DNA of 64,000 bases, taken from positions 352,395 to 416,394 of the forward strand of contig JAZKBU010000005.1 in assembly GCA_040388375.1 (NCBI GenBank). Direction: 5' to 3'. The position numbers were made by a program, and so were the translations under genes. The stretch comes from Bacteroidota bacterium (GTDB lineage Bacteria; Bacteroidota; Bacteroidia; UKL13-3). The notes below the pieces were generated by a model that saw only the letters and a program-made list of their open reading frames with translations, made no database searches and was not told the DNA's origin. This document shows, one piece after another, positions 19,187 through 53,700 of this stretch (within the stretch, counting starts at the first letter, position 1; each line of letters opens with the position of its first letter).

Positions 19187-21001
19187 TTAATCTACGATAC
19201 CATAAGTAATAGAAACACTTGTTAATGGAGTATTTACAAATAACTCATCAGCCGTTTCCCTATCAATTCGCAGTATTACATCTTTTTCTTCTTTTTCAGA
19301 TAATGTGCCGGTAACGCGCACATATATTTTTTTAAAGTTATCTAAATTAGTAACTAAAAGTAATGTTCCTGCCGGGGCTGTTTTATGTAGTATACCTGTA
19401 AAAATTGGATTGTCAGTTAAAATACATAAACCTCTTTCTTGTACGGCCAATATTTTATTTGATTTATCATTTTGTTTAATTTGGGTTTTTTGATCAGGCG
19501 TAATTGAGTTAAGCGCTAAATATGGTTTAGCAGCTCTTTTAGCATTTACAATTAAATCTTGCCCAACTCTTACTCTTTCTTGGTATAAGTTATTCCAGTT
19601 GGCGATATCGCTGGGTGCTATTTTATATTTTCTAGCTATACTTTCTAGGGTTTCTCCTTTTACAACCACATGCGTATAGTTTTCTTTTGTTTCTCCATCG
19701 GAAGCATTGGCATGTACATCTTTTATATTAATGTCTTTAATATTATCGGCAATTGTTTTCCTGGCACTGTCTTCTAACCTGTCGTTAGCAGGTACTATTA
19801 CATCTCCCCATTTAAAACTTGGATCGTATGGTTTTTGCTCGGTGCTTGCAATAATTTGTTCTGCTTTTCCTGTTTTTGGATTTTTTGTTTTTTTAACTTT
19901 AGCTTGTTTAGGCTGTTTTTCTTGCTTGTCTTCTTTCTCCTCTTGAATAGGTTTAGGTTGTTTTATTTTACTGGTTTTGGCTACGGCAGTATTTTTTGTT
20001 TTTTGCCCGTAAGTTAAACCGGTTAGTTTCTTTAAAACCTCTTTGCTTGTAGGTATTAATAATATTTGCCCAGTTGTAACTTTTGTTGAAGTTAAACCAT
20101 TAACAGCCAAAATACGGGCATTTGTTGAGTAATTTGTTTTCGAAATTCTGGTCAAATCTTCTCCGCTTATTACCCGGTGTTTAATATATAATTTACCTGC
20201 TTTTTTTACTACAATATAATCACCTAATCTTGATTCACCAGGTTCTAATCCTTCATCTACTACTTGTTCTTCCTCGTCAATAACAACTGGTTCTGCAGCT
20301 ATTTGCTCTTTCATCACCACAGGTTCTTCCACTTTGGTTGTTGTAATCAATGTTGAATCAATAGCCGTTTTATCCGTGGTATCTACTGCATTTGTGGTTT
20401 CTTCAAAAGCTACTACTTGTTCTCTTCTTACCGGTATTTTTATGATTTTACCAACCTCAAGCTGTGGGTTTGCATTTGGGTTGAATTCCAATATTTCCGC
20501 AGGTGTACAGTAATAATGTTTGGCTACATCTTTTAAATTATCGTTTTTACCAATTCTGTATACTATTAAACTATTTGCGCCTCTGAATTCAGTTCTTAAT
20601 TCTTCTCCGTATACTTTTGCCCTTTCGATTTTAACAGTTTTTTTTGTTTCTTCTCCGGCTTTTGTAACGGTAGTATCTCCGGTGTATGGTAATACAAAAG
20701 AATCGGTATCAGTATTATTTATATTAATATCAGTTGCTTGTTTCTGTGCTTTTTTTTCTGATGGAGGTATGATAATGGTTTTTGCTCCTTTTAAATTTTC
20801 TTTCAACTCAGGGTTAGCAACGTAAAGCGCACTGATGGAAACAGCATATTCATCTGCAATTGATTGCCAGGTATCTGTTGTTTTAACAGTGTATACGGTA
20901 TATGTTTTACCGTCAATAACGCGTGTTTGATTTTGTGCTGTTATACTTGTAATACCAATTACAACAACAATAAAAAATAACAAAAAGTGTTTCATTTTCA
21001 T
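19187..21001 (-). CDS. secreted multi-LysM-domain protein with a lysine-rich low-complexity linker
   Basis: Signal peptide. At least 4 LysM repeats (for example YTVKTTDTWQSIADEYAVSISALYVANP and HVVVKGETLESIARKYKIAPSDIANWNN). A KQPKPIQEEKEDKQEKQPKQAKVKKTKNPKTGK tract. Confidence 0.8.
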   Translation of the reverse strand: MKMKHFLLFFIVVVIGITSITAQNQTRVIDGKTYTVYTVKTTDTWQSIADEYAVSISALYVANPELKENLKGAKTIIIPPSEKKAQKQATDININNTDTDSFVLPYTGDTTVTKAGEETKKTVKIERAKVYGEELRTEFRGANSLIVYRIGKNDNLKDVAKHYYCTPAEILEFNPNANPQLEVGKIIKIPVRREQVVAFEETTNAVDTTDKTAIDSTLITTTKVEEPVVMKEQIAAEPVVIDEEEQVVDEGLEPGESRLGDYIVVKKAGKLYIKHRVISGEDLTRISKTNYSTNARILAVNGLTSTKVTTGQILLIPTSKEVLKKLTGLTYGQKTKNTAVAKTSKIKQPKPIQEEKEDKQEKQPKQAKVKKTKNPKTGKAEQIIASTEQKPYDPSFKWGDVIVPANDRLEDSARKTIADNIKDINIKDVHANASDGETKENYTHVVVKGETLESIARKYKIAPSDIANWNNLYQERVRVGQDLIVNAKRAAKPYLALNSITPDQKTQIKQNDKSNKILAVQERGLCILTDNPIFTGILHKTAPAGTLLLVTNLDNFKKIYVRVTGTLSEKEEKDVILRIDRETADELFVNTPLTSVSITYGIVD

Positions 21002-23222: not shown

Positions 23223-24374
23223 TTATAAAAGTGTGTCAGTATGAGTTTGAAGTACTACTTCGTTTTGTTGTTCCAAAATATAAATAATGCAAAGTTGAAC
23301 TAAAAAAAAAGGAAATGCTAGACTAGCAGCTGAAAACCCCATTGTTATTAATGGTAAAACGACATAGAAAGACCTCCATGATGTATTCTTTCCAAGAAAA
23401 TACATATTTATACTGAATAGAAGTAACCCAATTAAACCTGTTTCTATTAATAGGGTTATTATTAAGTTATGAGCACCCATTCCGATGAAACTAGCGGTGT
23501 TACCCATCCCAATTCCAAGTAAAATAGTGTTTAATGATGCACTTTTTAATAATGTTATGGCTAAATCTATTAATATAAATTTAGAATTAAAGCTAGCATC
23601 TCTACTTAAAATTGATAGTAAAATTAAAGAAATAAAAATTAAAATTATTGCCAAAGATATTATCCCAAATATTTGTTTTTTGTTGATGGTTATTGGGAAT
23701 GATATTCTGTTAAATATAACTGAATAGAGTAATAAGGTAATTATTGCGGAGCGTGATGTAGAAAGTATGGTAAGAATAAAAAGCAGTGATTTAATTATCT
23801 TCGCATTTGGGATAATTATGTTTTTTTTGCTTAAATAAACCATAAAAAAGTAAGTTAGACATATTTGAACTCCAACAAAGTTAGCATCTAAGTACATTAT
23901 AGAGTTAAATTTAAACATATAAGCCAATCCTTGCTCTCTTGTATGTCCTGAATACATATTTGTTGAGTACAAAGTTGGGTGACTTAATCTCCAAAAAGCA
24001 TCTGCAATAAATAGAAGAGTATGGAAAATAAGCATGTAATAGATTAAATTTTTGAAACTATTTTTAGAAAGGGAGTTTAAATTTTGATAACAAAAGAAAA
24101 AGAAAAAATACGGTAAAATTAACCCTAAAGTGTTTGGGAATTTGGTATTAGGAATAAGTGATTGTGCGGCAAAACTGAATATGAAAACAAACAAATTAAA
24201 ATAAGCTAATTTATTGTGTTTTATTTCGGGTTTCAATATTTGCTTAAATGCAAAAACTATAATAGCTAATAACAGGAAAAAATAAATAGGGCTATAAGGT
24301 GTTATACCGGCTAAAAACAAACCAGAACCTATTAGTAACAATAAGGAAATAAAATAATCTGCACTAGTTGCCAT
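23223..24374 (-). CDS. polytopic membrane protein, Wzy-type O-antigen polymerase/ligase family
   Basis: 383 aa with about 10 predicted TM helices and one larger loop. It sits inside the polysaccharide locus. Confidence 0.6.
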   Translation of the reverse strand: MATSADYFISLLLLIGSGLFLAGITPYSPIYFFLLLAIIVFAFKQILKPEIKHNKLAYFNLFVFIFSFAAQSLIPNTKFPNTLGLILPYFFFFFCYQNLNSLSKNSFKNLIYYMLIFHTLLFIADAFWRLSHPTLYSTNMYSGHTREQGLAYMFKFNSIMYLDANFVGVQICLTYFFMVYLSKKNIIIPNAKIIKSLLFILTILSTSRSAIITLLLYSVIFNRISFPITINKKQIFGIISLAIILIFISLILLSILSRDASFNSKFILIDLAITLLKSASLNTILLGIGMGNTASFIGMGAHNLIITLLIETGLIGLLLFSINMYFLGKNTSWRSFYVVLPLITMGFSAASLAFPFFLVQLCIIYILEQQNEVVLQTHTDTLL

Positions 24375-25305
24375 ATTTGGAAAACAATTTTATAAATAGC
24401 CAACTACTTGATTTAACAGTTCTTTTAATATTGGTATTTGAAATGTTGAATTTAAAGTAATGTAAAAAGTAATCAGTAAAACTAATTTTAGCATTAAGTA
24501 GTAAGTATAATTCTTTATAATGAAATTCAGAAATAATTTGATTGATTTTCTTTTTCTTGTCTTTACTGTTGTTAGGTATAAAATGTAATTTTATGTCCAT
24601 AACACTTTTTTCAAAAGCAATGAGTTTATTTATGTCTTTACTTTTTGAACCTGACTCATCTAATATTCTATAAACACAAGTTATCTCTTCCATATACTTT
24701 ACTTTCGCTTGTTTTGCGAAAAAAATCCATAATGGTAAGTCCCCAAGTTTCCAGTCTTTATTAAAAGGATCTATTTCGTTTTGATAGCTTATAAATAAAT
24801 CTTTTCTAAAGCAGGTTGTTAACGTACCTATTATATTTCCCTTTGTTAGTAGGTGATTATAAATATTGTCTGTTTTAGGAATATTAACTTTTACTGGTTC
24901 ATATTGTTGTGTATGCTGATGCAATTTTTTATAGTTAGTATGCACTAATCCATAATCAGCATGCGTTTCTAAAAAGGCAACTTGTTTTTGTAATTTCTTT
25001 TTATCAATCCAATAATCATCACCCTCAAAATAGGCTATGTATTTTGAGGAAGGGTAACTTAATAGGTCAATCCAGTTTGTATTGGCACCTACATTCTTTT
25101 CCTGTAAAATAAGTTTTATTTTATCAGGGTACTTTTCTTTATAACCTAAAAGTATTTCTCTTGTATTATCAGTCGAAAAATCATCTGCAATAACAAGTTC
25201 CCATGTATATTCAGTTTCCTGCATTAATACACCCTCAATGGCTTGAGCAATGTATTTTCCATGATTATATGTAATAAGACAAACTGATACTAATGGGGTA
25301 GTCAT
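24364..25305 (-). CDS. glycosyltransferase family 2
   Basis: N-terminal VSVCLITYNHGKYI…VIADDFSTDNT and DDYW motifs. Confidence 0.8.
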   Translation of the reverse strand: MTTPLVSVCLITYNHGKYIAQAIEGVLMQETEYTWELVIADDFSTDNTREILLGYKEKYPDKIKLILQEKNVGANTNWIDLLSYPSSKYIAYFEGDDYWIDKKKLQKQVAFLETHADYGLVHTNYKKLHQHTQQYEPVKVNIPKTDNIYNHLLTKGNIIGTLTTCFRKDLFISYQNEIDPFNKDWKLGDLPLWIFFAKQAKVKYMEEITCVYRILDESGSKSKDINKLIAFEKSVMDIKLHFIPNNSKDKKKKINQIISEFHYKELYLLLNAKISFTDYFLHYFKFNISNTNIKRTVKSSSWLFIKLFSKYGN

Positions 25306-25311
25306 TGTATT

Positions 25312-26055
25312 TTATTTTCCCTTTTCACACATTAAAAAAATACTTGAGCATAAATCAGGGTATTGTTGACCTAACTGGTAGCAACCATCCAAATATTCTT
25401 TTGAAATAATATCAGTATTTAATAATCTATCCCACTGGAAATTGGCTAAAGCTTTAAAGAATATTCCTGAGCGATGAACTACTTTTAACCCTGCGGCTTT
25501 TGCATCTCTTTCCAGTGTATCTAACGAATAGGTAATTCTATGTCCATGTTCAGCCTCGGCCGGAGTTACAGCGCTGTTATGCGTAATTAACCCCATTTTT
25601 ACAGCTATTTGTCTTGAAGGAGCATTGGCATTAGGACATACTAAGAAAAAACGCCCGTTATCAGATAGCCATTCATCGTTAATACGTTTCATTACTTTAA
25701 TAGGATCATCAATATGCTCCAATACATGGGTTAAAACTATATTGTCGTATTTGGTAGGCAGCGTGGCTGTTTCAAACATGGAATTGATAAACTTTACTTT
25801 GTCACCAAATTCTTTTTTTGCTATTTCAATAGCTTCGTCCGATGCTTCCACACATGTAATATCGTCAAAGTGGGGTAAAAATCTTCTGGTAAAATTTCCT
25901 TGAAAACTACCTAATTCTAAAAAGTTACCTTCCTTAAAAAAGGGCTCAAATGATTTTAACATATAAGGGTGCATTACATCCAAGTCAAAACCATAGGTGT
26001 ATTTGCGGCCTTCATTATCTTTAAATTCTTCGTTATAGTTTCTGGTTGTGTTCAT
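25312..26055 (-). CDS. class I SAM-dependent methyltransferase
   Basis: Motif I FLELGSFQG and an acidic post-motif II (…VLTHVLEHIDDP). Confidence 0.75.
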   Translation of the reverse strand: MNTTRNYNEEFKDNEGRKYTYGFDLDVMHPYMLKSFEPFFKEGNFLELGSFQGNFTRRFLPHFDDITCVEASDEAIEIAKKEFGDKVKFINSMFETATLPTKYDNIVLTHVLEHIDDPIKVMKRINDEWLSDNGRFFLVCPNANAPSRQIAVKMGLITHNSAVTPAEAEHGHRITYSLDTLERDAKAAGLKVVHRSGIFFKALANFQWDRLLNTDIISKEYLDGCYQLGQQYPDLCSSIFLMCEKGK

Positions 26056-26061
26056 TTTTAA

Positions 26062-27024
26062 TTAATTATTTTGTTCAAGTTCTGCTAAACCAAATCCGGT
26101 TCTTCCAAATTCATTTCCGTTGTAAAGTAAATAAACTTTACCATTACATTCAAAAATATGCGGATAACACATCATTTCCGAATCCCAATCGTTTTCGCTT
26201 AAATCAATCCCTGCATTTTCATCATCGCGGGTCCAGTTTATCAGGTCGTCAGAATAAGCATACCCCAATTTATAACCACGGCCTTTTACGTTTCTAAAGC
26301 CTGTGGCAAACCTGTAGCAAAAGTACATATGGTAACGATTACCTATTTTAACAACAGTTGGCAATGCCTGGCATTCATCTTCTCCAATTTTATTAGGTAT
26401 AATCAGATTACTGTTTTTATTCCAGTTTATGCCATCTTTTGAAGTAGCCTGTGCAATTTTATATACGCGCGATTCTGTTCCGTCTGTTTCGGCATTGTTT
26501 ATCCATTTTACTCCATAAATATACCACATGTAAAATAGCCCTTCATAAAACTGAACAAAAGCATCACATACTAAAAATGGCTCTTTCAGCGAAGAGGATA
26601 CAATAGGGCCTTTACCATATTTTTCAAAAGTTAAACCTTCATTGTTGCTATATGCTAAACCAATGGAGGTTTCAAGTGAGACAGATTTACGTCTGCTTAA
26701 TCCACTTGTAAAGCCGTAAATTTTACCCTCATGACGTAACACATTCATGGGGAAAATTCCATGCTCATCAAAAGTCCCAAGGCCTCCTAACGGAATAACC
26801 GTATCTTTTGAAATATTGATGATGTTTTTGAAATCTTTATCAAAATCAACAAATGCAATATGTCCTAAGTATTTACCTGTTGGTTCTACCTCGCGGGTAG
26901 TAAAATATATTCTTACAAAATTATCTGATACCAGTACTTGCGGTGATTGGGCAAATTGAACGCAATTATTGGGTAATTGATGTTCTGTCGGATCAAATAT
27001 TTTTCCTAATTTTTTCCATTTCAT
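26062..27024 (-). CDS. five-bladed beta-propeller glycosidase-superfamily protein (GH43/GH32/GH130-like), paralog A
   Basis: 320 aa, no signal peptide. N-terminal W-K-K-L-G…D-P motif with recurring GxxW / WNK blade motifs. It is about 35-40% identical by eye to the adjacent paralog. Confidence 0.5.
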   Translation of the reverse strand: MKWKKLGKIFDPTEHQLPNNCVQFAQSPQVLVSDNFVRIYFTTREVEPTGKYLGHIAFVDFDKDFKNIINISKDTVIPLGGLGTFDEHGIFPMNVLRHEGKIYGFTSGLSRRKSVSLETSIGLAYSNNEGLTFEKYGKGPIVSSSLKEPFLVCDAFVQFYEGLFYMWYIYGVKWINNAETDGTESRVYKIAQATSKDGINWNKNSNLIIPNKIGEDECQALPTVVKIGNRYHMYFCYRFATGFRNVKGRGYKLGYAYSDDLINWTRDDENAGIDLSENDWDSEMMCYPHIFECNGKVYLLYNGNEFGRTGFGLAELEQNN

Positions 27025-27027
27025 AGT

Positions 27028-27987
27028 CTATAAATTCCCCTTTAATTTTGCCAATCCAAAGCCATAACGGCCAACTTCATTACCTATGTATAACATGTAA
27101 ATATTATTATCCAATTCAAAAACATGTGGGTAGGCATTCATTTCTGAATCCCAACCTTCTTCTGAAAGTTCAATCCCCACTTTGCTATCATCCCTAGTCC
27201 AGTTTAATAAATCTGTTGAATATGCATATCCTATTTTTCTAGTTCTAGTTTGCCTGAAAGATGAAGGAACCCAACCGCAAAAAAACATATGGTATTTTCC
27301 ATTGGCATAGAAAACATCAGGGCTTGCCTGTGCCTCGGTTTTATCCCAGCCATCAGGAATTATGTCTTTATTTATTTTATTCCAATTAATGCCATCGTCA
27401 GAAATAGCTAATCTTATTTTATGGCTGATTTCTGGTTTGTTATTTTCTAAGTACCAATTGGCACCGGCTATATAAAAAAGATAATATTTATCGTTGAATT
27501 TTCTGATTTTAGGTCCACTTAAAGTAAATGGTTCTTCCGGTGTATATGGTAAAACAGGTCCTTCGCCCATTCGTTCAAAATGTTCGCCATTATTTTTACT
27601 AACAGCTAATCCTATTCCCACATTAAATGGTACTGATTCACACCTTGTCCAACCTGCGTAATAACCCCACAATTCATCGTTGTTTTTTATAATGGATAGG
27701 GGATAGGTTCCAAACTCATCAAATGTTCCTTTGTTGCCTAAGTTAAGTACCGGTTTTGCTGCAAACCGCTCTATTTTAAATAAGTCTTTTCTATTTAAAT
27801 CAACATAGGTTGTGTAAGTAACATATTGGCCATTTTCATCGCGTTTTGGTCTGCATCCAAAAAACACTCTCACAAAATCATCAAATACCAAAGTACATGG
27901 TGCCTGAGCAAACTCATTCATCCATTCTTTCCTGTTTTCATAATCCAGTGGATTATATATTCTTCCTAATTTTTCCCAACTAAACAT
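27028..27987 (-). CDS. five-bladed beta-propeller glycosidase-superfamily protein, paralog B
   Basis: 319 aa, colinear with paralog A (…DGINWNK…, …LLNWTRDD…, …GFGLA(E/K)L…). Confidence 0.5.
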   Translation of the reverse strand: MFSWEKLGRIYNPLDYENRKEWMNEFAQAPCTLVFDDFVRVFFGCRPKRDENGQYVTYTTYVDLNRKDLFKIERFAAKPVLNLGNKGTFDEFGTYPLSIIKNNDELWGYYAGWTRCESVPFNVGIGLAVSKNNGEHFERMGEGPVLPYTPEEPFTLSGPKIRKFNDKYYLFYIAGANWYLENNKPEISHKIRLAISDDGINWNKINKDIIPDGWDKTEAQASPDVFYANGKYHMFFCGWVPSSFRQTRTRKIGYAYSTDLLNWTRDDSKVGIELSEEGWDSEMNAYPHVFELDNNIYMLYIGNEVGRYGFGLAKLKGNL

Positions 27988-28004: not shown

Positions 28005-28685
28005 TTATGATGGTAGTTTACAAAGATTTCTAGCTCCGGTTTTTAAGGAGCCGTAGTAGTAATCATTAAAGCCTGCTTTATCCATTAATTCAAATACTTT
28101 TTCCATATTGTATTCAACTCTATGTAGGTTAATTGAATTGTTTTCAATAGTAGCAAAAGCTGCCCTTGGGTCTCCGTCTCGCGGTTGTCCAACAGAGCCA
28201 GGATTACAGTAGATTTTATTCTTGAAATTTTGCAAGGTTTGTAAATGGGTGTGTCCTGAAAAAAATATTTCACCTTCTACTTTCGAAAAATACTCCTCGT
28301 TTGGTTCTAGTAAGTACTCATCAATAGGGTCAGCCCAACCACCATGTACCATTTTTATATGGTCTATTTCAAATTGTAACTGAAATGTTTTTACCCAACT
28401 TAAATTTTCTGCTGTTATAACTTTACGTTGATATGCTAAGCAGTCATTAACACTTTTTGATCGCGGACAGTATCCTCCACCGGCCATATACCAATCGTGG
28501 TTACCCATTAATGAAGGTATATTTCTTTTCCTTAACTCATCGCAGCATTCATTTACCTGCGAGTAATAACCAACTACATCACCTAAGCAATATATTTTAG
28601 AAATATTCATTTCATCTATCTTATGCAACACGCTTTTCAGTGCTTCATAATTTCCATGTATATCAGATATGATTGCTATTTTCAT
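28005..28685 (-). CDS. calcineurin-like metallophosphoesterase (YfcE-like)
   Basis: Metal-ligand motifs SDIHGN, GDVVGY, GNHDW and GHTH. Confidence 0.8.
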   Translation of the reverse strand: MKIAIISDIHGNYEALKSVLHKIDEMNISKIYCLGDVVGYYSQVNECCDELRKRNIPSLMGNHDWYMAGGGYCPRSKSVNDCLAYQRKVITAENLSWVKTFQLQFEIDHIKMVHGGWADPIDEYLLEPNEEYFSKVEGEIFFSGHTHLQTLQNFKNKIYCNPGSVGQPRDGDPRAAFATIENNSINLHRVEYNMEKVFELMDKAGFNDYYYGSLKTGARNLCKLPS

Positions 28686-29640
28686 AAAATATAAAATCCT
28701 CAGTATATCTTACTGCTTTTCCTTTTCTTATTAAAGGTTGTAAAGGTAATTTATTTTCTAAATAATATTCAACCGACATTAACGATTCATTGTAGCCAAA
28801 TGCTGTTCTGATAGATGTGGCGGAGGATATGCGGGGGTTTATTTCTAACAATTTAAGTTCACCGTGGTGGTTTCTAAACTGAAAATTGGTAGGGCCTACA
28901 GGTTTAAAAATGGCACAAAGTTCCAGTATTGCTTTTTTAATAGACTCCATTTCAACTACTTCAGCCTTTTCTGTAAAACCATCATTTGATAGTTTCCTCC
29001 TGATAGCCATGTAGGCACAAATGCCTCCTTTACCATCGCAGAATGCAGAAGCAGAATATTCTTCATTGTCAGTTCCAATAAAAGGTTGTACCATTAAATC
29101 GGTACCAATTTTGGATTGATGAATAAGAAAGGTTTCTTTATTATTCACTTTTACTATTCCTTTTGAGCCAAATCCTATCCTAGGTTTTAATAGTAAATTA
29201 GCACCAAATTCTTCAACTATTAACTCGTAATCATTTTCTAAACTTGTAGGAATAGCTGTGCTTACATTGTGTTTTTGTAATTGCTCATAAAAAAGCCATT
29301 TGTCTTTGGTAAATTTTATAAGGTCAGTATTATTTAATAATATTTTTGCCCCGCTTGATTCTATCTCACTAATATGTTCAACCCATTTGTATAAATCGGC
29401 TTCAATGCCTGGTATAATGAATGCAATATTGTGCTTTTTAATAGTATCTGTTAGCCATGTTATATAATTGTTATCGTTTGTTAAAATGGCTTTTTCAAAA
29501 ATATCACAAAATCCTTGAGCTACTGAATCTTCATATATAGTAGTTCCAATTAGCTTTAAATTTTTATTAGCACTTTTAAGCGATTTAAGGATACCATAGC
29601 CTACTATTCCGCTAGCGCCTGAAACAAGTATATTACTCAT
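28663..29640 (-). CDS. ATP-grasp domain protein (carboxylate-amine ligase type)
   Basis: The six-frame ORF extends to 29664. The start at MSNILVSG… (29640) is more likely because it avoids overlap with the upstream gene. Pre-ATP-grasp Rossmann-like N-terminus, then a central ATP-grasp core (…LLKPRIGFGSKGI…ELKLLEINPR…). Confidence 0.7.
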   Translation of the reverse strand: MSNILVSGASGIVGYGILKSLKSANKNLKLIGTTIYEDSVAQGFCDIFEKAILTNDNNYITWLTDTIKKHNIAFIIPGIEADLYKWVEHISEIESSGAKILLNNTDLIKFTKDKWLFYEQLQKHNVSTAIPTSLENDYELIVEEFGANLLLKPRIGFGSKGIVKVNNKETFLIHQSKIGTDLMVQPFIGTDNEEYSASAFCDGKGGICAYMAIRRKLSNDGFTEKAEVVEMESIKKAILELCAIFKPVGPTNFQFRNHHGELKLLEINPRISSATSIRTAFGYNESLMSVEYYLENKLPLQPLIRKGKAVRYTEDFIFYENSNHI

Positions 29641-30484
29641 TGGTATTCCTCCTGTATGCTGCAATTTTATTCATTCCTTGTTCAATTGTAATTTGAGGAA
29701 AAAAGTTTATTAAGTTGTATAAAGTATTATCATTCCCAAAAACATTATTGGCAATGTTTTCCTTGTTTGTAATGAAGTTTATTTGTCCATTGCTATTGAA
29801 TGCCTGCATAGCCGCTCGGGCTATTTGCGAAATGGTTACATCTTCCGTATTGGTTAATGAAAAACTACCCGTAATTGTATGTTGCATTACTTTTTTTATA
29901 ATTATAGCCAAATCGTCAATATGTAAATAGTTTCTTTTGGCATCGTGGTTACCAAATATGTCTATATTTTCTTTTAATTGAGCTTTATCAGCAAATGCAT
30001 AAATTAATGGTTGGTGTTTCCTGAAACTATCATCGTTGCCATAAAGCATGGTAGGCTTTAAAATAGTAATCGGTAGTTGTCTTTTTTTGCAATAAAACAA
30101 AGCAATTTCTTCCGCATGCTTTTTCGATATTGAATAAATGGAATAATTAGCAGAATTATCTTTCAATTCAGTATAAATGCTGGATATATAGATGAAATGT
30201 TTAACGTTTGCTTTTACAGCAGCCTCACATAATTTTAGGGTACCAATTACGTTTACATATTCAGTATTTAAAATATCCTCAAATGAGTTTCCTCCAAAAC
30301 TAGCTGCTATATGTAATACTACATCTATATTATCAGGGAAATTAATTACCTGATTTGTATTATTTAAATCAATAATAATATCGCAATCTTTTCTTCCGGC
30401 CGTTATCACTTCTGAAAACTCAGAGAGTATAGGCTTAAGTGTTTGTGCGATAGAAGAAGTACCTCCAATAATTAAAATATTCAT
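29633..30484 (-). CDS. NAD-dependent epimerase/dehydratase (extended SDR) family protein
   Basis: N-terminal ILIIGGTSSIAQ glycine-rich motif and a YxxxK-type region (YSISKKHAE). Confidence 0.75.
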   Translation of the reverse strand: MNILIIGGTSSIAQTLKPILSEFSEVITAGRKDCDIIIDLNNTNQVINFPDNIDVVLHIAASFGGNSFEDILNTEYVNVIGTLKLCEAAVKANVKHFIYISSIYTELKDNSANYSIYSISKKHAEEIALFYCKKRQLPITILKPTMLYGNDDSFRKHQPLIYAFADKAQLKENIDIFGNHDAKRNYLHIDDLAIIIKKVMQHTITGSFSLTNTEDVTISQIARAAMQAFNSNGQINFITNKENIANNVFGNDNTLYNLINFFPQITIEQGMNKIAAYRRNTNE

Positions 30485-31189
30485 CTAAATTGTGGTAAAT
30501 GAGTTATTTAAATAATTAGTAATTGCTGATTTTGAATTAAACATCATTACATCAATAATAGATAAAAATGGAATAAACTCATTATTGAATTGTTTGTATT
30601 GAATGTTGTCGGCCTTTATAAATTGTAAATGTATTGACTCTTTTAAAAAATGTTCTTTGCTATACAAGTCAGTTCCACCAATAGGATTTATATAGGTAGT
30701 AGCATGTAGTTCTTTACAAATAGCTATTACTTTTTCTTCGGCCTTTAAATGATGGTTTATTGGTAAAGTGGAAGAAACTACAATTTCGGTTTTAATAGAT
30801 AAGTAATCTAAAGTTTTATTTAACGCATTAAAAATAAAGCCGAATAAATTAGTTGATGAATAATTAAAACAATCTTCTATTAGCTTGATAACATCATTAA
30901 AGTGTGGTGCTTTTCTGTAGTTTTCCTTTATTTTATTTAATAGCTTACCTTTTTCTTTATGCCAGTCGGCCGATAGGTGTCTATCCATAACATCTAAAAA
31001 GTCGGAGTCTTTTAATAGGGGTAATGTAAAATATTCATCTTTACCATTACTAAGTATTCTATTTCTATTAATCCAACCTTTTTTTGTGTATTGAATATTG
31101 TCGTAAATTACAAAACAATCAACCGCATTTATTAATTGAAAATACCCAATATATGGAAATATATAGGGCTGCATAATCCCAATTTTCAT
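30485..31189 (-). CDS. WbqC-like family protein
   Basis: N-terminal MKIGIMQPYIFPYIGYFQLI… is the hallmark of the WbqC-like (PF08889) family found in O-antigen loci. Confidence 0.7.
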   Translation of the reverse strand: MKIGIMQPYIFPYIGYFQLINAVDCFVIYDNIQYTKKGWINRNRILSNGKDEYFTLPLLKDSDFLDVMDRHLSADWHKEKGKLLNKIKENYRKAPHFNDVIKLIEDCFNYSSTNLFGFIFNALNKTLDYLSIKTEIVVSSTLPINHHLKAEEKVIAICKELHATTYINPIGGTDLYSKEHFLKESIHLQFIKADNIQYKQFNNEFIPFLSIIDVMMFNSKSAITNYLNNSFTTI

Positions 31190-31192
31190 GTT

Positions 31193-32278
31193 TTAATTGT
31201 TTAAAGCACGTAATAGAATTCTACATACATAATCTATCTCTTCATTTGATAATTTATGATACATAGGAAGACATAAAATTTGCTTTGAAATACTTTCGCT
31301 TACGGGTAAGGTATTTTCACTTTTATAAATTTCAACTGTATTTAATGATGGATAAAAATACCTTCTGGGATTTATTCTATTGGCTTCTAACTCATGTTTA
31401 ACTTTTAGTAAAACACTTTCACTCTCAAAAACAACCGGGTAATAAGCGTAGTTAAAATCAGCTTTACTATTCAATTCTATTTTTTTGAGTTTTGGATTCG
31501 TTAACCATTTGTCGTAATGCAAACTTTGGTTTTTTCGTGAAGCCAGTATTGCTTCTATATCTTGTAAGTTCGCCAACCCCATGGCTGCATGGAACTCTGA
31601 ATTTTTACCATTTATACCAACTGCATCAAAATGCTCGGGTCCGTTGTGTCCAAAATTCCTAAGCAGGGCCATTTCTTTTAACAGCTCAGGGTCGCTTGTA
31701 AATACTGCACCACCCTCTACTGTATGGAATAATTTTGTAGCATGAAAACTGGTAGTAACGATATCGCCAAACTCAAATACTGATTTGCCTTTGTATTTTG
31801 TACCAAAGCAATGGGCAGCATCGTATATAACTTTTAAATTATGTTTTTTAGCTATTTTATCAATTGCATCAATATCGCAAGGATTACCAAAAACGTGGGT
31901 AGCTAAAATAGCACTTGTATTTGGCGTAATGGCATCTTCAATTAATTGTGGGTTTATGTTTAAAGAGTCTTTATCAATATCGACAAATACTGGTTTACAT
32001 CCTTCCCAAACCAAACTACTTACTGTGGCCACATAACTAAATGGAGTTGTAATAATTTCTCCTTTTAATTGTAGTGCTTTTATTGCTATTTGTAATGCAA
32101 TAGTACCATTGTTTATGTAAAGTAAATGAGGTACTTGAAGATATTCTTTTAATTTTAATTCTAACTCATTAACTAATGGTCCATTATTTGTAAGCCATTC
32201 ACGTTGCCAAATACCTTTTAAGTATTCTGTATAAGTTTCTAAGCTAGGTAAATATGGAGTAGTTACATTTATTGCCAT
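31193..32278 (-). CDS. DegT/DnrJ/EryC1/StrS-family sugar aminotransferase (PLP-dependent)
   Basis: 361 aa with a …SFHATKLFHTVEGGAVF… PLP-lysine region and an overall family-wide pattern. Confidence 0.85.
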   Translation of the reverse strand: MAINVTTPYLPSLETYTEYLKGIWQREWLTNNGPLVNELELKLKEYLQVPHLLYINNGTIALQIAIKALQLKGEIITTPFSYVATVSSLVWEGCKPVFVDIDKDSLNINPQLIEDAITPNTSAILATHVFGNPCDIDAIDKIAKKHNLKVIYDAAHCFGTKYKGKSVFEFGDIVTTSFHATKLFHTVEGGAVFTSDPELLKEMALLRNFGHNGPEHFDAVGINGKNSEFHAAMGLANLQDIEAILASRKNQSLHYDKWLTNPKLKKIELNSKADFNYAYYPVVFESESVLLKVKHELEANRINPRRYFYPSLNTVEIYKSENTLPVSESISKQILCLPMYHKLSNEEIDYVCRILLRALNN

Positions 32279-33844: not shown

Positions 33845-34909
33845 CTAATTACTATTGATAATAGTTTTTAAATTTTTTGTTATCAGATAAATTGATAATA
33901 AAATGGATGTTATAACGGATCCAATGATAGCAGAAATCAATCGCGATAATTTCTTTTTTTCAAGAGGTAAAGTAGGTTTATCAACCGTTTGAAAAAATGG
34001 AGTTTGGTTATCTAAAGCAAATTTTGCAATCTCTAGGTTTTTAAGAACTTCTGCATACATCAAGCTTAGCATTTCTACATCTCGTTTTGTCCTTTCAACG
34101 TCTACGCGTCCTTGCATTCTAATTACTTTTAAATTTCTATCAAATATACCTGCGCCATAACTTTCTTTTTCGTATAACAATGTTCTTATGGAGTCAGCTC
34201 TAAATTTAATTAGCTGGTAATTTTTTAATTGGCGATGAATACTTTTTGTGGTATAATATTCGGATAAATTTTTAAATAGACTTTCAACGAATAATTTAGC
34301 AAATTTTTCATTTATTGATTTAAAATCAATGGCAATAATTCCAGCACTTTGGATAACAATACCTGTTTTCTTTTTGGTATCTATAGTTAATAATTTATCA
34401 TCAACTATTCGCTTTATAATTAAATCGAGTACTTTATTTTCCTGATATGACAAACTATCAAGGAGGTTATGTTTAAAATAAGTAAATGAATTTAAACTGG
34501 TATCTGATTGAAAAATACTTGATAGCTTATAAATATCTATGAAATGATTAACTAATAATTCTGGTTTATCATTGATAACTACTTTTTCTAATAGCGTATT
34601 TCCAATAAGTTGACGAGAATTGGCTATATATAATAATTTGTCTTCATTTACATTAGTATTTCCTCCAATACCAGCAATACCAGCAATACCAGCTAATGAA
34701 GATAAATTAAATCCTGAAGAACCTTCATTTTCATTTAAAATAAACGAATATTTGGAAATATAAGTTGGCTTTGAAATATGAGCAATGTAAAATCCAATTA
34801 ATCCCCCTAAGAGACTTATTAATATAATAATTAATAGTTTAGTTAAAAGGAACATAATAGAGTTTTTTATAAAACTTATTATGTCAATTAATTCCACTGA
34901 ATTCTTCAT
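33845..34909 (-). CDS. Wzz-like chain-length determinant protein (no kinase domain), paralog 2
   Basis: TM helix near the N-terminus, a periplasmic coiled region and a TM helix at the extreme C-terminus. It contains a GIAGIAGIAGIGG repeat. Confidence 0.7.
   Translation of the reverse strand: MKNSVELIDIISFIKNSIMFLLTKLLIIILISLLGGLIGFYIAHISKPTYISKYSFILNENEGSSGFNLSSLAGIAGIAGIGGNTNVNEDKLLYIANSRQLIGNTLLEKVVINDKPELLVNHFIDIYKLSSIFQSDTSLNSFTYFKHNLLDSLSYQENKVLDLIIKRIVDDKLLTIDTKKKTGIVIQSAGIIAIDFKSINEKFAKLFVESLFKNLSEYYTTKSIHRQLKNYQLIKFRADSIRTLLYEKESYGAGIFDRNLKVIRMQGRVDVERTKRDVEMLSLMYAEVLKNLEIAKFALDNQTPFFQTVDKPTLPLEKKKLSRLISAIIGSVITSILLSIYLITKNLKTIINSN
34665..34697. repeat. in-frame 9-bp tandem repeat (CCAGCAATA x about 3.5) inside the wzz-like gene, encoding (GIA)n
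   Basis: Read directly from the sequence. Confidence 0.8.
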
Positions 34910-34959: not shown

Positions 34960-36168
34960 TTATATTGAATTTCTGTTAAAATAGTGTTTTGTATCTATGT
35001 AAAACATAAATAAGAAGGTTATAGCGTAATACATTAAATTTGGTTGTAACAAATAATGAATTAAAAATATTAAAAAGAATATAAGCAAGTGATTTTTAAA
35101 TGCTCTTTTGGCTAATAAAAACAATAAATAAAAAGGAATGATTGATAATATTCCATATTGAACTAAAATAAATAATAAGCCATTATGGGGTTCATGGGCA
35201 TTTGTAAATGATATCCACCTAGAAGAAAAATTTAATGCACCCGGACCATAAATAAAATAGTTATCTACACATAAATTTAATCCATCCGTTAAAGAATGTT
35301 TTCTATCCAAGTTACTTTGTAATGACCGCTCATTTTCTTCACTTTTTAAAAGCCGGGCAATAGAAGAACTTGGATTTTCTCGGGCGTAATTAGTAAGTTG
35401 ATCTGAGAATATAACAGCAGAAAATAGAGTAACTATTACCGTTACTCCAATAATAATTGTTTTAAAAAAAGTTATATTTTTTAACAGCAAATAAAAAACA
35501 TAGCTAAACAACATAATTAAGCCTTGCCTTGACCCAGCCAAATCTGTAAGATATAAAGCCAATAAAAAAATAATTACTAATAGGACTTTTTGTAAACCTT
35601 TATTCTTTAAATTTAGCTCATACGATAAAATTAAGAAGTATATACAAATAGCTCCTGAATAAGAATTGGAATCAATTAAAGTACCAGCAATTCGTGTTAA
35701 AACCCTTTTTTCAATATTATCGGAAAGAATAATAGAAAACAAGAGAGGATTGGCATTTTCAAATAACCCTTGGATAGTTAAAATTATGATTGAAAGTAGA
35801 CTTATGTGTATAAACCACTTATTTAATTCTGGTTTTTTATTATTAATGCTAAAGGTCCACGAGAAATAAAAAAAATACAATAACACTCTTATTAAATCGT
35901 TTGCAATGGGAACAGAACCATTAATAAACCAATCAATAAAACATAATGGTATTGAAGTCGTTACAAAAAAAATAGTGTTCCAGCTATTTATAAAGTTAAC
36001 AATCTGGTCTTTGTTAAAATTTAAAAGAAAGAATAACAAGCTAAGCAATAAACAAATGATGATTATGATAGAAGAGCTTAATCCAAATATTCCGGAGAAA
36101 TAATATAAATTATTAATTATAGTTATTCCTATTCCTATATTGATAAATTTCTCTAATTTTCTTAGCAT
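34960..36168 (-). CDS. polytopic membrane protein, O-antigen ligase/Wzy-like
   Basis: 402 aa with at least 10 TM helices and one large loop. It sits between the two wzz-like genes. Confidence 0.6.
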   Translation of the reverse strand: MLRKLEKFINIGIGITIINNLYYFSGIFGLSSSIIIIICLLLSLLFFLLNFNKDQIVNFINSWNTIFFVTTSIPLCFIDWFINGSVPIANDLIRVLLYFFYFSWTFSINNKKPELNKWFIHISLLSIIILTIQGLFENANPLLFSIILSDNIEKRVLTRIAGTLIDSNSYSGAICIYFLILSYELNLKNKGLQKVLLVIIFLLALYLTDLAGSRQGLIMLFSYVFYLLLKNITFFKTIIIGVTVIVTLFSAVIFSDQLTNYARENPSSSIARLLKSEENERSLQSNLDRKHSLTDGLNLCVDNYFIYGPGALNFSSRWISFTNAHEPHNGLLFILVQYGILSIIPFYLLFLLAKRAFKNHLLIFFLIFLIHYLLQPNLMYYAITFLFMFYIDTKHYFNRNSI

Positions 36169-36195: not shown

Positions 36196-37266
36196 CTAGA
36201 AAACAATTTTTGCTTTAAGGAATAAAACTGTAATAGATATTAAACAAATAAAACTGAACAGAAATGCACCGATAATACTAAATACGATTAGTGATTTCGA
36301 TAATTCTTCAAGGGGAAAAGAGGGTTTATCTATTACTTGAAAAACAGGTTTTTCTTGGTCATAATTAAATTTAGCAATTTCTTTGTTCTTTAATAATTCG
36401 GCATACAGCACATTTAATAATTCAGTTTCTTTTTTTAGTCTTGCTTCGTTTACTTTACCACTAAACCTGATTATTTTATTAGAAATGTCCATCTCATTAG
36501 CAACAGCGACTTCACTTCTTTCCATAATTCTTTTTGTTGAGTCTAATCTTTGGGAAACCAAATCTAAATTAGCCTTTAAGCTTTTTGTTATAATCTGTGT
36601 ATAGAAATCGCTTAAATTAAAATAAATGGCATCGATAAGTCTTTTTGATAAGAGCTCATCTTTTGATTTATAACTAATTAAAATAATACCACTAGAAGAC
36701 TGGCCAACAAAAGAAGAAGTTTTCTTTTTTACAGCATCGCTTTGTAAGTCGTTTGATTTTAAAATTTTTGATATTAAAAAATCCATTATTTTATTCTCTA
36801 CATGGCTTAAGTTATCAATGTTTTTAGAAGTGAAGTGATTGAAATTTTGTAATGAAGTATCTTTTCCGTCCCAATCTTTTTTATAGTCGTTTAGTGCTAT
36901 TAATTTATCGGCAACCGTAATTTTTTCTTCCTCAATAATAGCAAGTAGTGATTGGCCTAATATTTTTTTTGTTGTAATTAAAAACAAAATTCTATCATCA
37001 GATACATTCACACTTGAGCCAGATGCACCTAATTGCCCGGCTAGCGCTGCTATTGGATTTTGACTTATACTTTTTGCATCGTTTATTATAAAGCTTAACT
37101 TAGCTTCATACTTTACAGGGCTTAATTTAACGTATGTAAAGCCAGCAGCTAAACCAATCAATACAGAAATAATTAAATATACTTTATGGTTTAGAATATA
37201 CTTTAAATAATCATTTATATTGTTTATAACATTTTTAAAATTAACAAGTTCTTTATTTTCATCCAT
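36196..37266 (-). CDS. Wzz-like chain-length determinant protein, paralog 1
   Basis: Same topology as 33845..34909, with a colinear C-terminal …VIDKPSFPLEE… box. Confidence 0.7.
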   Translation of the reverse strand: MDENKELVNFKNVINNINDYLKYILNHKVYLIISVLIGLAAGFTYVKLSPVKYEAKLSFIINDAKSISQNPIAALAGQLGASGSSVNVSDDRILFLITTKKILGQSLLAIIEEEKITVADKLIALNDYKKDWDGKDTSLQNFNHFTSKNIDNLSHVENKIMDFLISKILKSNDLQSDAVKKKTSSFVGQSSSGIILISYKSKDELLSKRLIDAIYFNLSDFYTQIITKSLKANLDLVSQRLDSTKRIMERSEVAVANEMDISNKIIRFSGKVNEARLKKETELLNVLYAELLKNKEIAKFNYDQEKPVFQVIDKPSFPLEELSKSLIVFSIIGAFLFSFICLISITVLFLKAKIVF

Positions 37267-51655: not shown

Positions 51656-52639
51656 ATGGCAAAAGTAACAATAGACGGACAAACAATAGAAGTAGCAGAC
51701 GGAACAACCATTTTGCAGGCTGCACGTATGATAGGGCCAGAAGTGGCTCCGCCAACTATGTGCTATTATAGTAAACTAAAAACCAGTGGTGGTTATTGCC
51801 GCACTTGTTTGGTTGAAGTAAGCAAAGGTTCAGAAAAAGATCCTCGTCCTATGCCTAAATTAGTAGCAAGTTGTCGTACTACTATTATGGATGGTATGGA
51901 AGTAAAAAATGTTACTTCCGAAAAAGTAATAGATGCACGTAAAGGAGTAGTAGAATTTTTATTGTTAAACCATCCTTTAGATTGCCCTATTTGTGACCAA
52001 GCAGGAGAGTGCCAGTTACAAGATTTAGGTTACGAACACGGCTCTGCTAAAACGCGTACCGATTTTGAACGTAGAACGTTTGATAAAATAAATATTGGTA
52101 ATAAAATCCAGTTACACATGACCCGTTGTATACTTTGCTACCGTTGTGTAAAAGTAGCCGAGCAAATTACCGATGGACGTGTGCATGGAGTAATGAATCG
52201 TGGCGATGCAAGTGAAATATCAACGTATATTGAACAAGCTATTGAAAACGATTTTAGCGGAAACGTAATTGATGTTTGTCCCGTTGGTGCATTAACTGAT
52301 AAAACATTCCGATTTAAAAGCCGTGTTTGGTTTACCAAACCGGTAGATGCACATAGAGATTGCGATAAATGCTGTGGCAAAGTGGTAATTTGGTATAAAG
52401 GTGAAGACGTTTTACGTGTTACCGGTCGTAAAGACCAATGGGGCGAAGTAGAAGAGTTTATTTGCAATACTTGCCGTTTTGATAAAAAGAGTACCAGTGA
52501 CTGGACTATTGAAGCTCCTACAGCTATTAGCCATCAATCAGTTATTTCAGCTAATCATTACGAGAAAATGGTAAGACCAAAAGAATTAACATTAAATAAT
52601 ATAAAACCAATTGCTTTAACGGAGGGAGATAACAAATAA
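51656..52639 (+). CDS. nuoG: NADH-quinone oxidoreductase subunit G (short form)
   Basis: 327 aa with N-terminal 2Fe-2S and 4Fe-4S cysteine clusters (C…C…C, CPICDQAGEC, CILCYRCV). It lacks the C-terminal molybdopterin-like domain. Confidence 0.85.
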   Translation: MAKVTIDGQTIEVADGTTILQAARMIGPEVAPPTMCYYSKLKTSGGYCRTCLVEVSKGSEKDPRPMPKLVASCRTTIMDGMEVKNVTSEKVIDARKGVVEFLLLNHPLDCPICDQAGECQLQDLGYEHGSAKTRTDFERRTFDKINIGNKIQLHMTRCILCYRCVKVAEQITDGRVHGVMNRGDASEISTYIEQAIENDFSGNVIDVCPVGALTDKTFRFKSRVWFTKPVDAHRDCDKCCGKVVIWYKGEDVLRVTGRKDQWGEVEEFICNTCRFDKKSTSDWTIEAPTAISHQSVISANHYEKMVRPKELTLNNIKPIALTEGDNK

Positions 52640-53700
52640 TGTTTTTATTATTTTTTAAAATAGCACTTATAGTCATTTTATTTTTAATAAGCCTAGGTGT
52701 TGCTGCTTATGCTACTTATGGTGAACGTAAGGTGGCTGCATTTATGCAAGATAGAATCGGGCCAGATCGTGCAGGACCATTTGGTCTATTACAACCCATT
52801 GCCGATGGCGTAAAAATGTTTATGAAAGAGGAAATTATTCCAAATGTTTCCGATAAGCTATTGTTTATTTTAGGTCCTTGCATTTTTATGATTACCGCTT
52901 TAATGACCAGTGCCGTTATTCCTTGGGGAACTGCAATGGAATTTAACGGTGTAAAATATGCATTGCAGGTAGCCGACATCAATATTGGAATTTTATACGT
53001 TTTTGGTGTAGTAAGTTTAGGTGTGTATGGTATTATGATTGGTGGCTGGGCGTCAAACAATAAGTTTGCTTTATTAGGTGCTGTGCGTGCTTCAAGTCAA
53101 ATGATCAGTTATGAATTGGCTATGGGTATGTCGCTTATTGCCATTATCATGATGAGTGGTTCATTAAGTTTAACGGATATTGTAACAGCACAAGGTCAAG
53201 GAAACCTTTGGGGATTTATTCCAGTAAGTGGTTTAAACTGGAACATATTTTACCAACCCTTAGGATTCATTATTTTTCTTATTTGTGCTTTTGCAGAATG
53301 TAACAGAACACCTTTTGATTTACCGGAATGTGAAACAGAATTAGTAGGTGGTTACCATACAGAATACTCATCAATGAAACTAGGTTTATACTTATTTGCC
53401 GAGTATATCAATATGTTTATTTCTGGTGCTATTATTTCTTGCTTATATTTTGGTGGTTATAACTTTCCAGGCTTAGCTTATTTAAGTTCGGTTTTAGACC
53501 CTAATATAGTGGCTGTAATTAGTTTTGGTGCCTTGTTTACAAAAGCTATTTTCTTTGTATTCTTCTTTATGTGGATTCGTTGGACAATTCCGCGTTTCCG
53601 TTACGATCAACTAATGAAATTAGGCTGGCAAGTGTTATTGCCATTATCAATATTAAATGTATTATTAACCGGTGGCGGATTAACCTTTTTTAGCAAATAA
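52639..53700 (+). CDS. nuoH: NADH-quinone oxidoreductase subunit H
   Basis: ND1-like with 8 TM helices. Its start overlaps the nuoG stop. Confidence 0.95.
   Translation: MFLLFFKIALIVILFLISLGVAAYATYGERKVAAFMQDRIGPDRAGPFGLLQPIADGVKMFMKEEIIPNVSDKLLFILGPCIFMITALMTSAVIPWGTAMEFNGVKYALQVADINIGILYVFGVVSLGVYGIMIGGWASNNKFALLGAVRASSQMISYELAMGMSLIAIIMMSGSLSLTDIVTAQGQGNLWGFIPVSGLNWNIFYQPLGFIIFLICAFAECNRTPFDLPECETELVGGYHTEYSSMKLGLYLFAEYINMFISGAIISCLYFGGYNFPGLAYLSSVLDPNIVAVISFGALFTKAIFFVFFFMWIRWTIPRFRYDQLMKLGWQVLLPLSILNVLLTGGGLTFFSK

Follow-up and report, generated by a model that had tools for sequence, protein, structure and literature searches.

The window analysed here is a stretch of 64,000 nucleotides from a Bacteroidota bacterium (GTDB lineage Bacteria; Bacteroidota; Bacteroidia; UKL13-3; assembly GCA_040388375.1, contig JAZKBU010000005.1, positions 352,395 to 416,394 of the forward strand). 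It contains a Bacteroidota-style Wzx/Wzy polysaccharide locus, in which two adjacent genes, designated propB and propA, encode closely related propeller proteins. This pair is a conserved, co-transcribed and cytoplasmic part of a mobile cassette for the tailoring of an amino-6-deoxyhexose. The two genes are separated by a gap of 3 nt and are as follows:

27028..27987, minus strand: propB, upstream paralog of 319 amino acids, lineage B; cytoplasmic five-bladed beta-propeller, carrying the PGAP name 'glycosylase' in Rhizobium
26062..27024, minus strand: propA, downstream paralog of 320 amino acids, lineage A (the lineage with GNAT fusions); cytoplasmic five-bladed beta-propeller

An earlier note on this DNA, made from the letters and the open reading frames, had described a tandem pair of colinear, cytoplasmic and signal-less paralogs with glycosidase-type propeller fold in a biosynthetic polysaccharide operon. 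All of these points hold. The coordinates are exact, and in BLASTP the two proteins align colinearly over the full length with 42% identity and 63% positives (E = 2e-87), a value that places their paralogy far above chance. The quoted start and blade motifs were all found in the translations: both proteins start with a similar motif, W3-K-K-L-G-K-I-F-D-P in propA and W4-E-K-L-G-R-I-Y-N-P in propB, they share DGINWNK, contain LINWTRDD (propA) or LLNWTRDD (propB) and carry GFGLA..L close to the C-terminus. Neither a signal peptide nor a transmembrane segment was detected in propA or propB, the maximum of the Kyte-Doolittle hydropathy (window of 19) being approximately 1.0 compared to 2.7-3.2 for Wzx and Wzy of the same locus. 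The setting is biosynthetic, with genes for Wza-like, Wzy_C and Wzx proteins, DegT, WbqC, a short-chain dehydrogenase/reductase (SDR), an ATP-grasp protein, a metallophosphoesterase, a methyltransferase and glycosyltransferases (GT) of the families GT2, GT2 and GT4 as neighbours.

The fold was assessed with AlphaFold2 models, using alignments of 100 sequences as input. The models reached a mean predicted local distance difference test score (pLDDT) of 94.4 and a predicted template modelling score (pTM) of 0.93 for propA, and a pLDDT of 92.5 and a pTM of 0.91 for propB. Both contain 20-21 beta-strands, and the N-terminal strand is an integral and high-confidence part of the fold. The top matches of a Foldseek search against the PDB were all five-bladed glycosidase-type propellers, i.e., the glycoside hydrolase (GH) family GH137 enzyme BT_0996 and members of GH130, GH43, GH32, GH117 and GH159, with template modelling (TM) scores of approximately 0.6-0.76 and sequence identities of 11-19%. 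The models and the structural search thus agree on the five-bladed glycosidase-type propeller fold. With TM scores of 0.72-0.76, the GH137 beta-L-arabinofuranosidase domain of BT_0996 (PDB 5MT2/5MUI) ranked first for propA as well as for propB in the structural search, and for propB the best matches were GH137 5mt2 and GH130 9fj8/7fip. However, the identity to the GH137 domain amounts to 15-16%, the NCBIfam score is weak (17-20 bits compared to a cut-off of 1800), and BT_0996 is a secreted, pectin-degrading enzyme of 1400 amino acids with an unrelated role.

Similarity in fold does not extend to membership in one of the known glycosidase families. For the GH130 profile PF04041, propA scored 26.8 and propB 40.7 bits compared to the Pfam gathering threshold of 26, and these matches cover residues 186-243 of propA and 186-267 of propB, that is 58-82 residues of a model with 320 positions. 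The NCBIfam equivalog for beta-1,2-mannobiose phosphorylase has a cut-off of 450 bits, of which the two proteins reached 42 and 60, and neither protein is a full-length GH130 member. For GH43 (PF04616), propB scored 21.2 bits, below the gathering threshold of 32.2, and propA was unmatched, placing both outside this family. The Pfam match to the N-terminal GH32 domain is barely above threshold and off-register, with protein residues 224-304 lying on profile positions 15-89, so that blade 4/5 is placed on blade 1/2. Blade 1 begins with QSP in propA and with QAP in propB, neither of which contains an aspartate; the NDP-type nucleophile/base motif is therefore absent. The three GH32 motifs (WMNDPNG-type, RDP and EC) do not occur in register, and a Glu-Pro pair in blade 3 alone resembles RDP. 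GH32, GH43 and GH117 are 'furanosidase-type' propellers that have the fold and blade motifs in common with propA and propB, and public annotations of the family borrow these names. Hence propA and propB share the fold superfamily with GH130, GH32 and GH43 and belong to none of these families. The profile and fold searches for GH130/DUF377, GH43 and GH32 that the earlier note had proposed support its fold superfamily and yield marginal and partial scores that speak against family membership; from its interpretation as a whole, the fold, the paralogy, the location and the setting stand, whereas membership in GH130, GH32 or GH43 does not, and the view that the pair is unusual in a Wzy pathway needs revision.

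By sequence, the best solved relative is 7FIP (profile E-values of 6e-10 to 4e-8). The alignments to 7FIP obtained with phmmer, with profile hmmsearch and with hhalign (-glob) show shifted blade registers, which are inconsistent between the paralogs: the 'EDPR'-type motif of GH130 aligns to 'ALP' in blade 4 of propA or to 'SGPK' in blade 3 of propB, and the residue aligned to the catalytic aspartate of GH130, which donates the proton through a 3-OH relay, is non-acidic in both discordant registers (L221 in propA, G158 in propB). Six residues upstream, in blade 3, lies the invariant Glu-Pro pair (E148 in propA, E152 in propB), and D86-E87 is located in blade 2. These discordant registers indicate that the propeller similarity to 7FIP is at the level of blades, and due to this blade-level similarity the canonical catalytic positions of GH130, GH32 and GH43 cannot be assigned from the sequence. 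An early idea, according to which propA keeps the GH130 aspartate as D154 and propB has lost it (G158), was dropped since it was derived from blade-shifted alignments.

Both propA and propB have numerous relatives. Among the scored candidates, 7,190 and 5,930 relatives were obtained for the two paralogs at E ≤ 1e-3, and a cluster search, which was exhaustive over 1.84 billion representatives at 50% identity, yielded 979 clusters when E ≤ 1e-30 was required and 3,934 with the looser limit of E ≤ 1e-10. The only names found on these relatives are 'hypothetical', 'GH43/DUF377', 'SacC (GH32)' and the PGAP name 'glycosylase'. Among the GTDB species representatives, the cassette bearing the pair was found in at least 588 species of approximately 10 phyla, the groups including Bacteroidota, Saccharimonadales, Alpha-, Beta- and Gammaproteobacteria, Verrucomicrobiota, Chlamydiota, Chloroflexota, Acidobacteriota, Planctomycetota and Campylobacterota. 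The orthologues of propB are 60-77% identical across phyla and those of propA 62-85% identical, and orthologues from other phyla show 56-70% identity to the propellers of the window. With a view to reading the product from known O-antigen chemistry, a distant blastn search of 5,426 E. coli genomes was made, which revealed no copy, and none was found in phages. Some long proteins also appeared, i.e., P0255 (5,844 amino acids), P0301, P0325 and P0357, which are giant tandem GH130-like blade-repeat proteins unrelated to the cassette. Longer members were considered as informative fusions and rejected: P0282 (441 amino acids) is a frameshift artefact, and the proteins of 900-5,844 amino acids represent generic blade repeats with weak scores per domain.

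A signature of charged residues (R38, R44, D86, E/D87, E/D148, E217, R244, R266, D268, D281 and N304 in propA numbering) persists across lineages sharing 30-40% identity and is complete in both proteins of the window. In addition, each lineage has its own invariant residues, including H88, D154, R186, K189 and R238 in lineage A and F92, S98, G158, K160 and W239 in lineage B. The shared signature together with the lineage-specific invariants fits with both paralogs being specialised active or ligand-binding subunits, neither of them representing a dead copy. Judged from the strand topology of the models, most signature residues would be located where the innermost strands begin, in the loops s2-s3 and in the s4-to-s1 linkers, with R38 at the start of s2 as exception; in related enzymes, these elements make up the active-site face. 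The length of approximately 310-325 amino acids, the lack of a signal peptide, the signature and the neighbouring genes for DegT and an N-acyltransferase define a DegT-associated propeller family, which consists of lineages A and B and a single-copy third group and to which propA and propB belong.

The genes that surround the pair in the window and make up the cassette are the following:

31193..32278, minus strand: DegT/DnrJ/EryC1 sugar aminotransferase (PF01041, 318 bits); cassette core
30485..31189, minus strand: WbqC family protein (PF08889, 239 bits), a putative aminoacyl/glycyl transferase by annotation only; cassette core
29633..30484, minus strand: SDR of the NAD-dependent epimerase/dehydratase family (PF01370); one of three genes that form the optional acyl module
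28663..29664, minus strand: ATP-grasp ligase ('carbamoyl-phosphate-synthase-like'; Pfam ATPgrasp_Ter and ATP-grasp_3); optional acyl module
28005..28685, minus strand: YfcE-like metallophosphoesterase (Pfam Metallophos_2, NCBIfam YfcE family); optional acyl module
25312..26055, minus strand: class I S-adenosylmethionine-dependent methyltransferase (MT; Methyltransf_23, weak similarity to NodS); cassette core
24364..25305, minus strand: GT2 following MT (PF00535), soluble and without transmembrane segment; probably the transferase for the cassette sugar

The closest NCBIfam model of the DegT protein is the DesI-type dTDP-4-keto-6-deoxyglucose aminotransferase, with a score below its cut-off, and the ATP-grasp ligase reached 198 bits for PRK12767 compared to a cut-off of 218.

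The neighbourhood of pairs of the A/B type was evaluated in 80 genome loci. The general order is DegT - WbqC - propB - propA - (N-acyl module) - MT - GT2. The order propB then propA is found in 77 of the 80 loci, and in 68 of 69 loci no more than 27 nt separate the stop codon of propB from the start codon of propA. DegT and WbqC are located upstream in nearly all loci, WbqC in most of them directly before propB, and MT is located downstream of the pair in 69 loci. In 57 of these 69 MT-bearing loci a GNAT of approximately 150 amino acids is encoded between propA and MT. The window and approximately 10 other loci of the 80, and likewise L001 and L002, represent a minority variant in which GNAT is absent, the space between WbqC and propB is taken by SDR, ATP-grasp ligase and metallophosphoesterase, and GT2 follows MT. 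In one Cyclobacteriaceae locus, a fused E1 dehydrogenase and a lipoyl-LbH acyltransferase take the place of the acyl module. This synteny across loci with exchanged acyl genes reveals a core that stays constant, consisting of DegT, WbqC, propB, propA and MT, beside an N-acyl module that can be exchanged. This module swap recalls the pglB/pglB2 alleles of Neisseria, which reportedly encode either an acetyltransferase or an ATP-grasp ligase resulting in acetamido or glyceramido sugars. An E1 dehydrogenase plus a lipoyl-LbH fusion occupy the acyl-module position in L007/L008, and the acyl trio of the window could ligate a phosphorylated hydroxy-acid and dephosphorylate it subsequently, which would be one example of the module chemistry. 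A PADLOC search matched neither the propellers nor WbqC to defence systems and gave for MT a single match to mad2 of 46 bits, which is probably generic. A scan of the locus for promoters and terminators resulted in counts at the level of shuffled sequences and was uninformative.

The cassette is not tied to one way of export. A Saccharimonadales cassette (L001) lies beside Wzm/Wzt-type ABC genes, the cassettes of other metagenomic contigs (L003-6) lie beside Wzx and that of Bernardetia beside an ABC ATPase, and on the plasmid pRlvE of R. leguminosarum UPM791 a solitary cassette with the order DegT-(IS3)-WbqC-propB-propA-GNAT-MT-GT2 is embedded among unrelated genes. Since the cassette occurs with Wzx/Wzy, with ABC export or alone, it is independent of the export route. 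PropB and propA make up a single conserved functional unit at the core of a horizontally mobile cassette, which serves to make and attach a decorated amino-6-deoxyhexose, and are no feature of this Wzy locus as such, a point that the wording of the earlier note (unusual in a Wzy pathway) passes over. Separately, an IS3 or IS5 element interrupts the cassette at WbqC on several R. leguminosarum megaplasmids (L088:12346-13433; H21-H23), and the cassette may be decaying in some strains of this species while it is intact in others.

The genes of the cassette are conserved to a different extent. The median identity to the protein of the window is 77% for MT, 61% for propB, 61% for propA, 54% for WbqC and 46% for DegT. 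No other cassette gene is conserved as strongly as MT, the C-terminal half of which is near-invariant. In 17 of 51 loci the gene after MT is a homologue of the GT2, with a median identity of 43%; elsewhere, unrelated glycosyltransferases are found in this place. From these sequence comparisons, the propellers behave like enzymes that encounter the same substrates in every host, and GT2 behaves like an enzyme meeting a variable acceptor. The higher conservation of the propellers compared to GT2 argues against a role as ordinary repeat-unit glycosyltransferases or polymer trimmers.

Information on the substrate class comes from a third group of propellers outside lineages A and B, which accounts for two-thirds of the representatives at 50% identity. 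These propellers are single-copy, a second copy being found in 0 of 80 metagenomic loci. For 20 well-flanked loci of this group, DegT was found in 18, an LbH acyltransferase in 17, a FemAB-like Acetyltransf_6 protein in 13, a GT2a homologue in 12 and WbqC in six. The GT2a homologues adjoin DegT, and the LbH gene ends at most 120 nt upstream of the propeller gene in 36 of 55 loci. Cultured organisms show which sugars are concerned: in Ruegeria TM1040 the genes for LbH acetyltransferase, propeller and Acetyltransf_6 lie in this order opposite to GT2, DegT and an FdtA/QdtA cupin, and in Azospirillum brasilense the order WbqC - GT2 - MT - LbH - propeller is found next to rffA and rfbC. The presence of FdtA/QdtA, rffA and rfbC as neighbours shows that the propeller family accompanies the tailoring of 3- or 4-amino-6-deoxyhexoses linked to deoxythymidine diphosphate (dTDP). 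Next to the propeller cassette of Ruegeria TM1040 lies a TPR glycosyltransferase of the OGT-like type (L171:6406-8088), and the cassette sugar may also be used in protein glycosylation in some hosts, e.g., of flagellin.

The link between propeller and N-acylation is also visible in gene fusions. P0257, P0263 and P0272 are fusions of propA and GNAT with 470-477 amino acids, which belong to lineage A, are mutually distant and carry a C-terminal GNAT resembling that of the cassette. For the second constant partner of the propellers, WbqC, a homologue in the PDB was not found. WbqC occurs on many plasmids without propellers (80 records compared to 31 with a propeller). In S. oneidensis it is annotated as 'putative glycine transferase' beside the genes for dTDP-Qui4N (PMC7253198), it is moreover found in operons with a dedicated ProRS (ProRSx) and a tRNA (PMC10404621), and in related cassettes it alternates with FemAB-like Acetyltransf_6 proteins (L114:2119-3063; L171:9927-10868). 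The alternation with FemAB-like proteins and the ProRSx/tRNA operons provide a hint from sequence and context that WbqC might act as an aminoacyl-tRNA-dependent transferase on amino sugars.

Based on these data we propose the following sequence of reactions. DegT would aminate a dTDP-keto-6-deoxyhexose to the amino sugar, WbqC, or a FemAB-like protein in relatives, together with the interchangeable N-acyl module would decorate the amine, MT would methylate the product and the soluble GT2 would attach the sugar to the glycan of the host. PropA and propB would form a hetero-oligomer, which arose by duplication of a single-copy and probably homo-oligomeric ancestor. Our preferred reading, which we advance tentatively and which falls somewhat short of an even chance, is that this heteromer is a GH130/GT108-like enzyme, the substrate of which is the N-acylated dTDP-amino-6-deoxyhexose that the cassette itself provides. 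It would catalyse an inverting transfer of the GH130/GT108 type using a donor of the glycosyl-phosphate type, i.e., a nucleoside diphosphate sugar or a sugar-1-phosphate, with the conserved arginine cluster holding the phosphate and the conserved aspartate and glutamate residues performing acid/base catalysis. As second substrate it would use the N-acylated sugar of the cassette, either bound to dTDP or just transferred by GT2. With the cassette's own sugar as substrate, the propellers would remain conserved while the polysaccharide of the host varies.

To our knowledge, all characterised members of the fold superfamily catalyse glycosyl transfer, with water, phosphate or a sugar as acceptor. 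This anomeric chemistry in conjunction with the donor precedent of GH130 and GT108 favours a GH130/GT108-like enzyme. Enzymes of both GH130 and GT108 use GDP-mannose as donor of mannose, their active sites are located near oligomer interfaces, and basic phosphate-binding residues decide in GH130 whether the enzyme acts as phosphorylase or as hydrolase (PMC12814180). The idea of the earlier note that a propeller with glycosidase fold can work synthetically is thereby backed by published precedent. The GT108 mannosyltransferase/phosphorylases of Leishmania are the sole established biosynthetic glycosyltransferases that use nucleoside diphosphate sugars and have this fold (PMC12814180). PropA and propB share with them the five-bladed GH130-like fold; GT108, however, is eukaryotic, mannose-specific and without a link to amino sugars, and GT108 chains were absent from the top 50 structural matches and from the sequence matches of propA and propB. 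Among the bacterial enzymes, the GH130 mannoside phosphorylases Teth514_1788/1789 (PDB 9FJ8, 7FIP) are similar in being cytoplasmic, in having the same fold (TM approximately 0.7), in being adjacent paralogs with divided roles and in the possible synthetic direction, even with GDP-mannose. The tandem paralogs Teth514_1788/1789 reportedly divide their labour (PMC4264767). These phosphorylases differ in that their identity to propA and propB amounts to 16-19% and in serving mannoside catabolism instead of amino-sugar biosynthesis.

Several points weigh against this proposal. Its main weakness is that GT2 could already transfer the sugar and that amination, acylation and methylation each have a candidate enzyme; as every expected step is covered in this way, no missing reaction points to the propellers. 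The catalytic aspartate and the phosphate-binding residues of GH130 are unmapped in the two proteins, as the hidden Markov model and HH alignments to 7FIP are blade-shifted. The heteromer is deduced from the coupling of the genes only, the predicted placement of the conserved residues on one face derives from strand topology, and the family is known from sequences, gene context and models. Moreover, each 90% cluster of the GNAT fusions holds only 1-2 sequences, and because of this rarity the fusions provide modest support.

Among the alternative explanations, a hydrolytic or phosphorolytic editing function can be considered, which appears unlikely to us. The propellers would cleave the glycosyl-phosphate bond of an N-acylated dTDP-sugar in a role similar to that of PseG/LegG, or would remove a wrong or temporary residue from a lipid-linked intermediate. 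In pseudaminic-acid biosynthesis PseH is followed by PseG, and PseG/LegG act right after N-acetylation. The N-acyltransferase is the tightest neighbour of the propellers and thereby matches this order, all close structural relatives are hydrolases or phosphorylases, and carboxylates and arginines are conserved. The resemblance to PseG/LegG is a functional analogy only, in which a protein with a fold for glycosyl transfer directly follows an aminotransferase and an N-acetyltransferase; PseG/LegG have a GT-B fold and their pathway continues with a NeuB-type synthase. The cassette contains no such synthase, and neither a kinase nor a nucleotidylyltransferase that could use a free sugar. It would furthermore be wasteful to destroy an activated sugar beside its own GT2, and trimming is not known in the cytoplasmic assembly of repeat units.

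Alternatively, the propeller might bind the sugar nucleotide and serve the small N-acyltransferase and the WbqC/Fem-like transferase as specificity or scaffold subunit, or it might be a new tailoring enzyme with non-anomeric activity such as keto-isomerisation or ring chemistry, to which we also assign a low probability. Such a role would account for the fusion to, or translational coupling with, minimal acyltransferases (GNAT of 150 and LbH of 220 amino acids) and for the nearly constant co-occurrence of a WbqC or FemAB-like protein. In addition, all standard steps of the pathway already have enzymes, and most A/B-type cassettes are without an FdtA-type isomerase or any SDR. On the other hand, a scaffold has no need for approximately 12 charged residues that are invariant across lineages of 30-40% identity, and WbqC works without propellers in many genomes. 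We know of no member of the fold superfamily with non-anomeric chemistry or with a pure role as binding subunit, which also counts against this explanation.

The earlier note had suggested that the two proteins act as independent phosphorylase-type glycosyltransferases or trimmers, which build or edit the backbone of this Wzy-dependent repeat unit. The synthetic use of the fold, for which the GH130/GT108 enzymes are examples (PMC12814180), survives from this suggestion, and the weak similarity to GH130 as well as the position of both genes among the glycosyltransferases of the locus are in agreement with it. The role in the repeat unit is nevertheless very unlikely: instead of accompanying the Wzy system, the pair travels with the amino-sugar cassette, also beside ABC exporters and in a stand-alone cassette on a plasmid, its conservation far exceeds that of glycosyltransferases meeting variable acceptors, and the single-copy relatives show that one propeller suffices. 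That the propellers are chance catabolic glycosidases, i.e., a fructosidase, an arabinofuranosidase or a mannoside phosphorylase, as the public names ('SacC GH32', 'GH43/DUF377') and the marginal Pfam matches imply, is extremely improbable given the strict cross-phylum synteny with DegT, WbqC and MT, the lack of transporter and sugar-utilisation genes nearby, NCBIfam equivalog scores far below the cut-offs and the off-register GH32 match.

Going beyond the single locus, it is possible, albeit doubtful, that the GH130/GT108-like enzyme proposed here represents an unrecognised and widespread family of carbohydrate-active enzymes with GH fold, heterodimeric in lineages A and B, for biosynthetic glycosyl transfer on N-acyl(aminoacyl)-amino-6-deoxyhexoses. 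If true, this would be a bacterial counterpart of Leishmania GT108 with a fold different from GT-A and GT-B inside a mobile cassette for the decoration of surface antigens, possibly the second example of a GH130-type fold in biosynthesis, and it would imply a new CAZy family and a conserved glycan epitope common to Bacteroidota, Saccharimonadales, rhizobia and many others. Neither the fold itself nor the notion that it can serve biosynthesis is new. The family, its paired form and the strict link to N-acyl/methyl tailoring of amino sugars appear to be undescribed, and a literature search found nothing on the propeller family, the cassette or the biochemistry of WbqC. Thousands of genomes carry misleading catabolic labels for these proteins ('glycosylase', 'SacC GH32', 'GH43/DUF377') or the label 'hypothetical'. 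The reaction, once solved, would give a function to a large family and probably reveal an undescribed conserved sugar decoration of the cell surface, which would include that encoded by symbiosis-related megaplasmids of Rhizobium and by the reduced genomes of Saccharimonadales. Testable ideas result as well for WbqC, for the FemAB-like partners and for the interchangeable N-acyl modules.

Genes for precursor synthesis were not found in the window, the right flank of which is the nuo operon. The polysaccharide locus encodes two Wzy/O-antigen-ligase-like proteins with multiple transmembrane segments (23223..24374 and 34960..36168), one of which matches Wzy_C while the other has no Pfam match. 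The proteins encoded by 33845..34909 (354 amino acids) and 36196..37266 (356 amino acids) match no Pfam family, and the latter resembles chain-length determinants only faintly. The last glycosyltransferase gene of the locus is directly followed by 19187..21001, which encodes a protein of 604 amino acids with at least four LysM domains. Finally, a ClpP protease gene (53714..54262; Pfam 234 bits) is located inside the NADH dehydrogenase operon, flanked by nuoH (52639..53700) and a 4Fe-4S nuoI-like gene (54270..54803).

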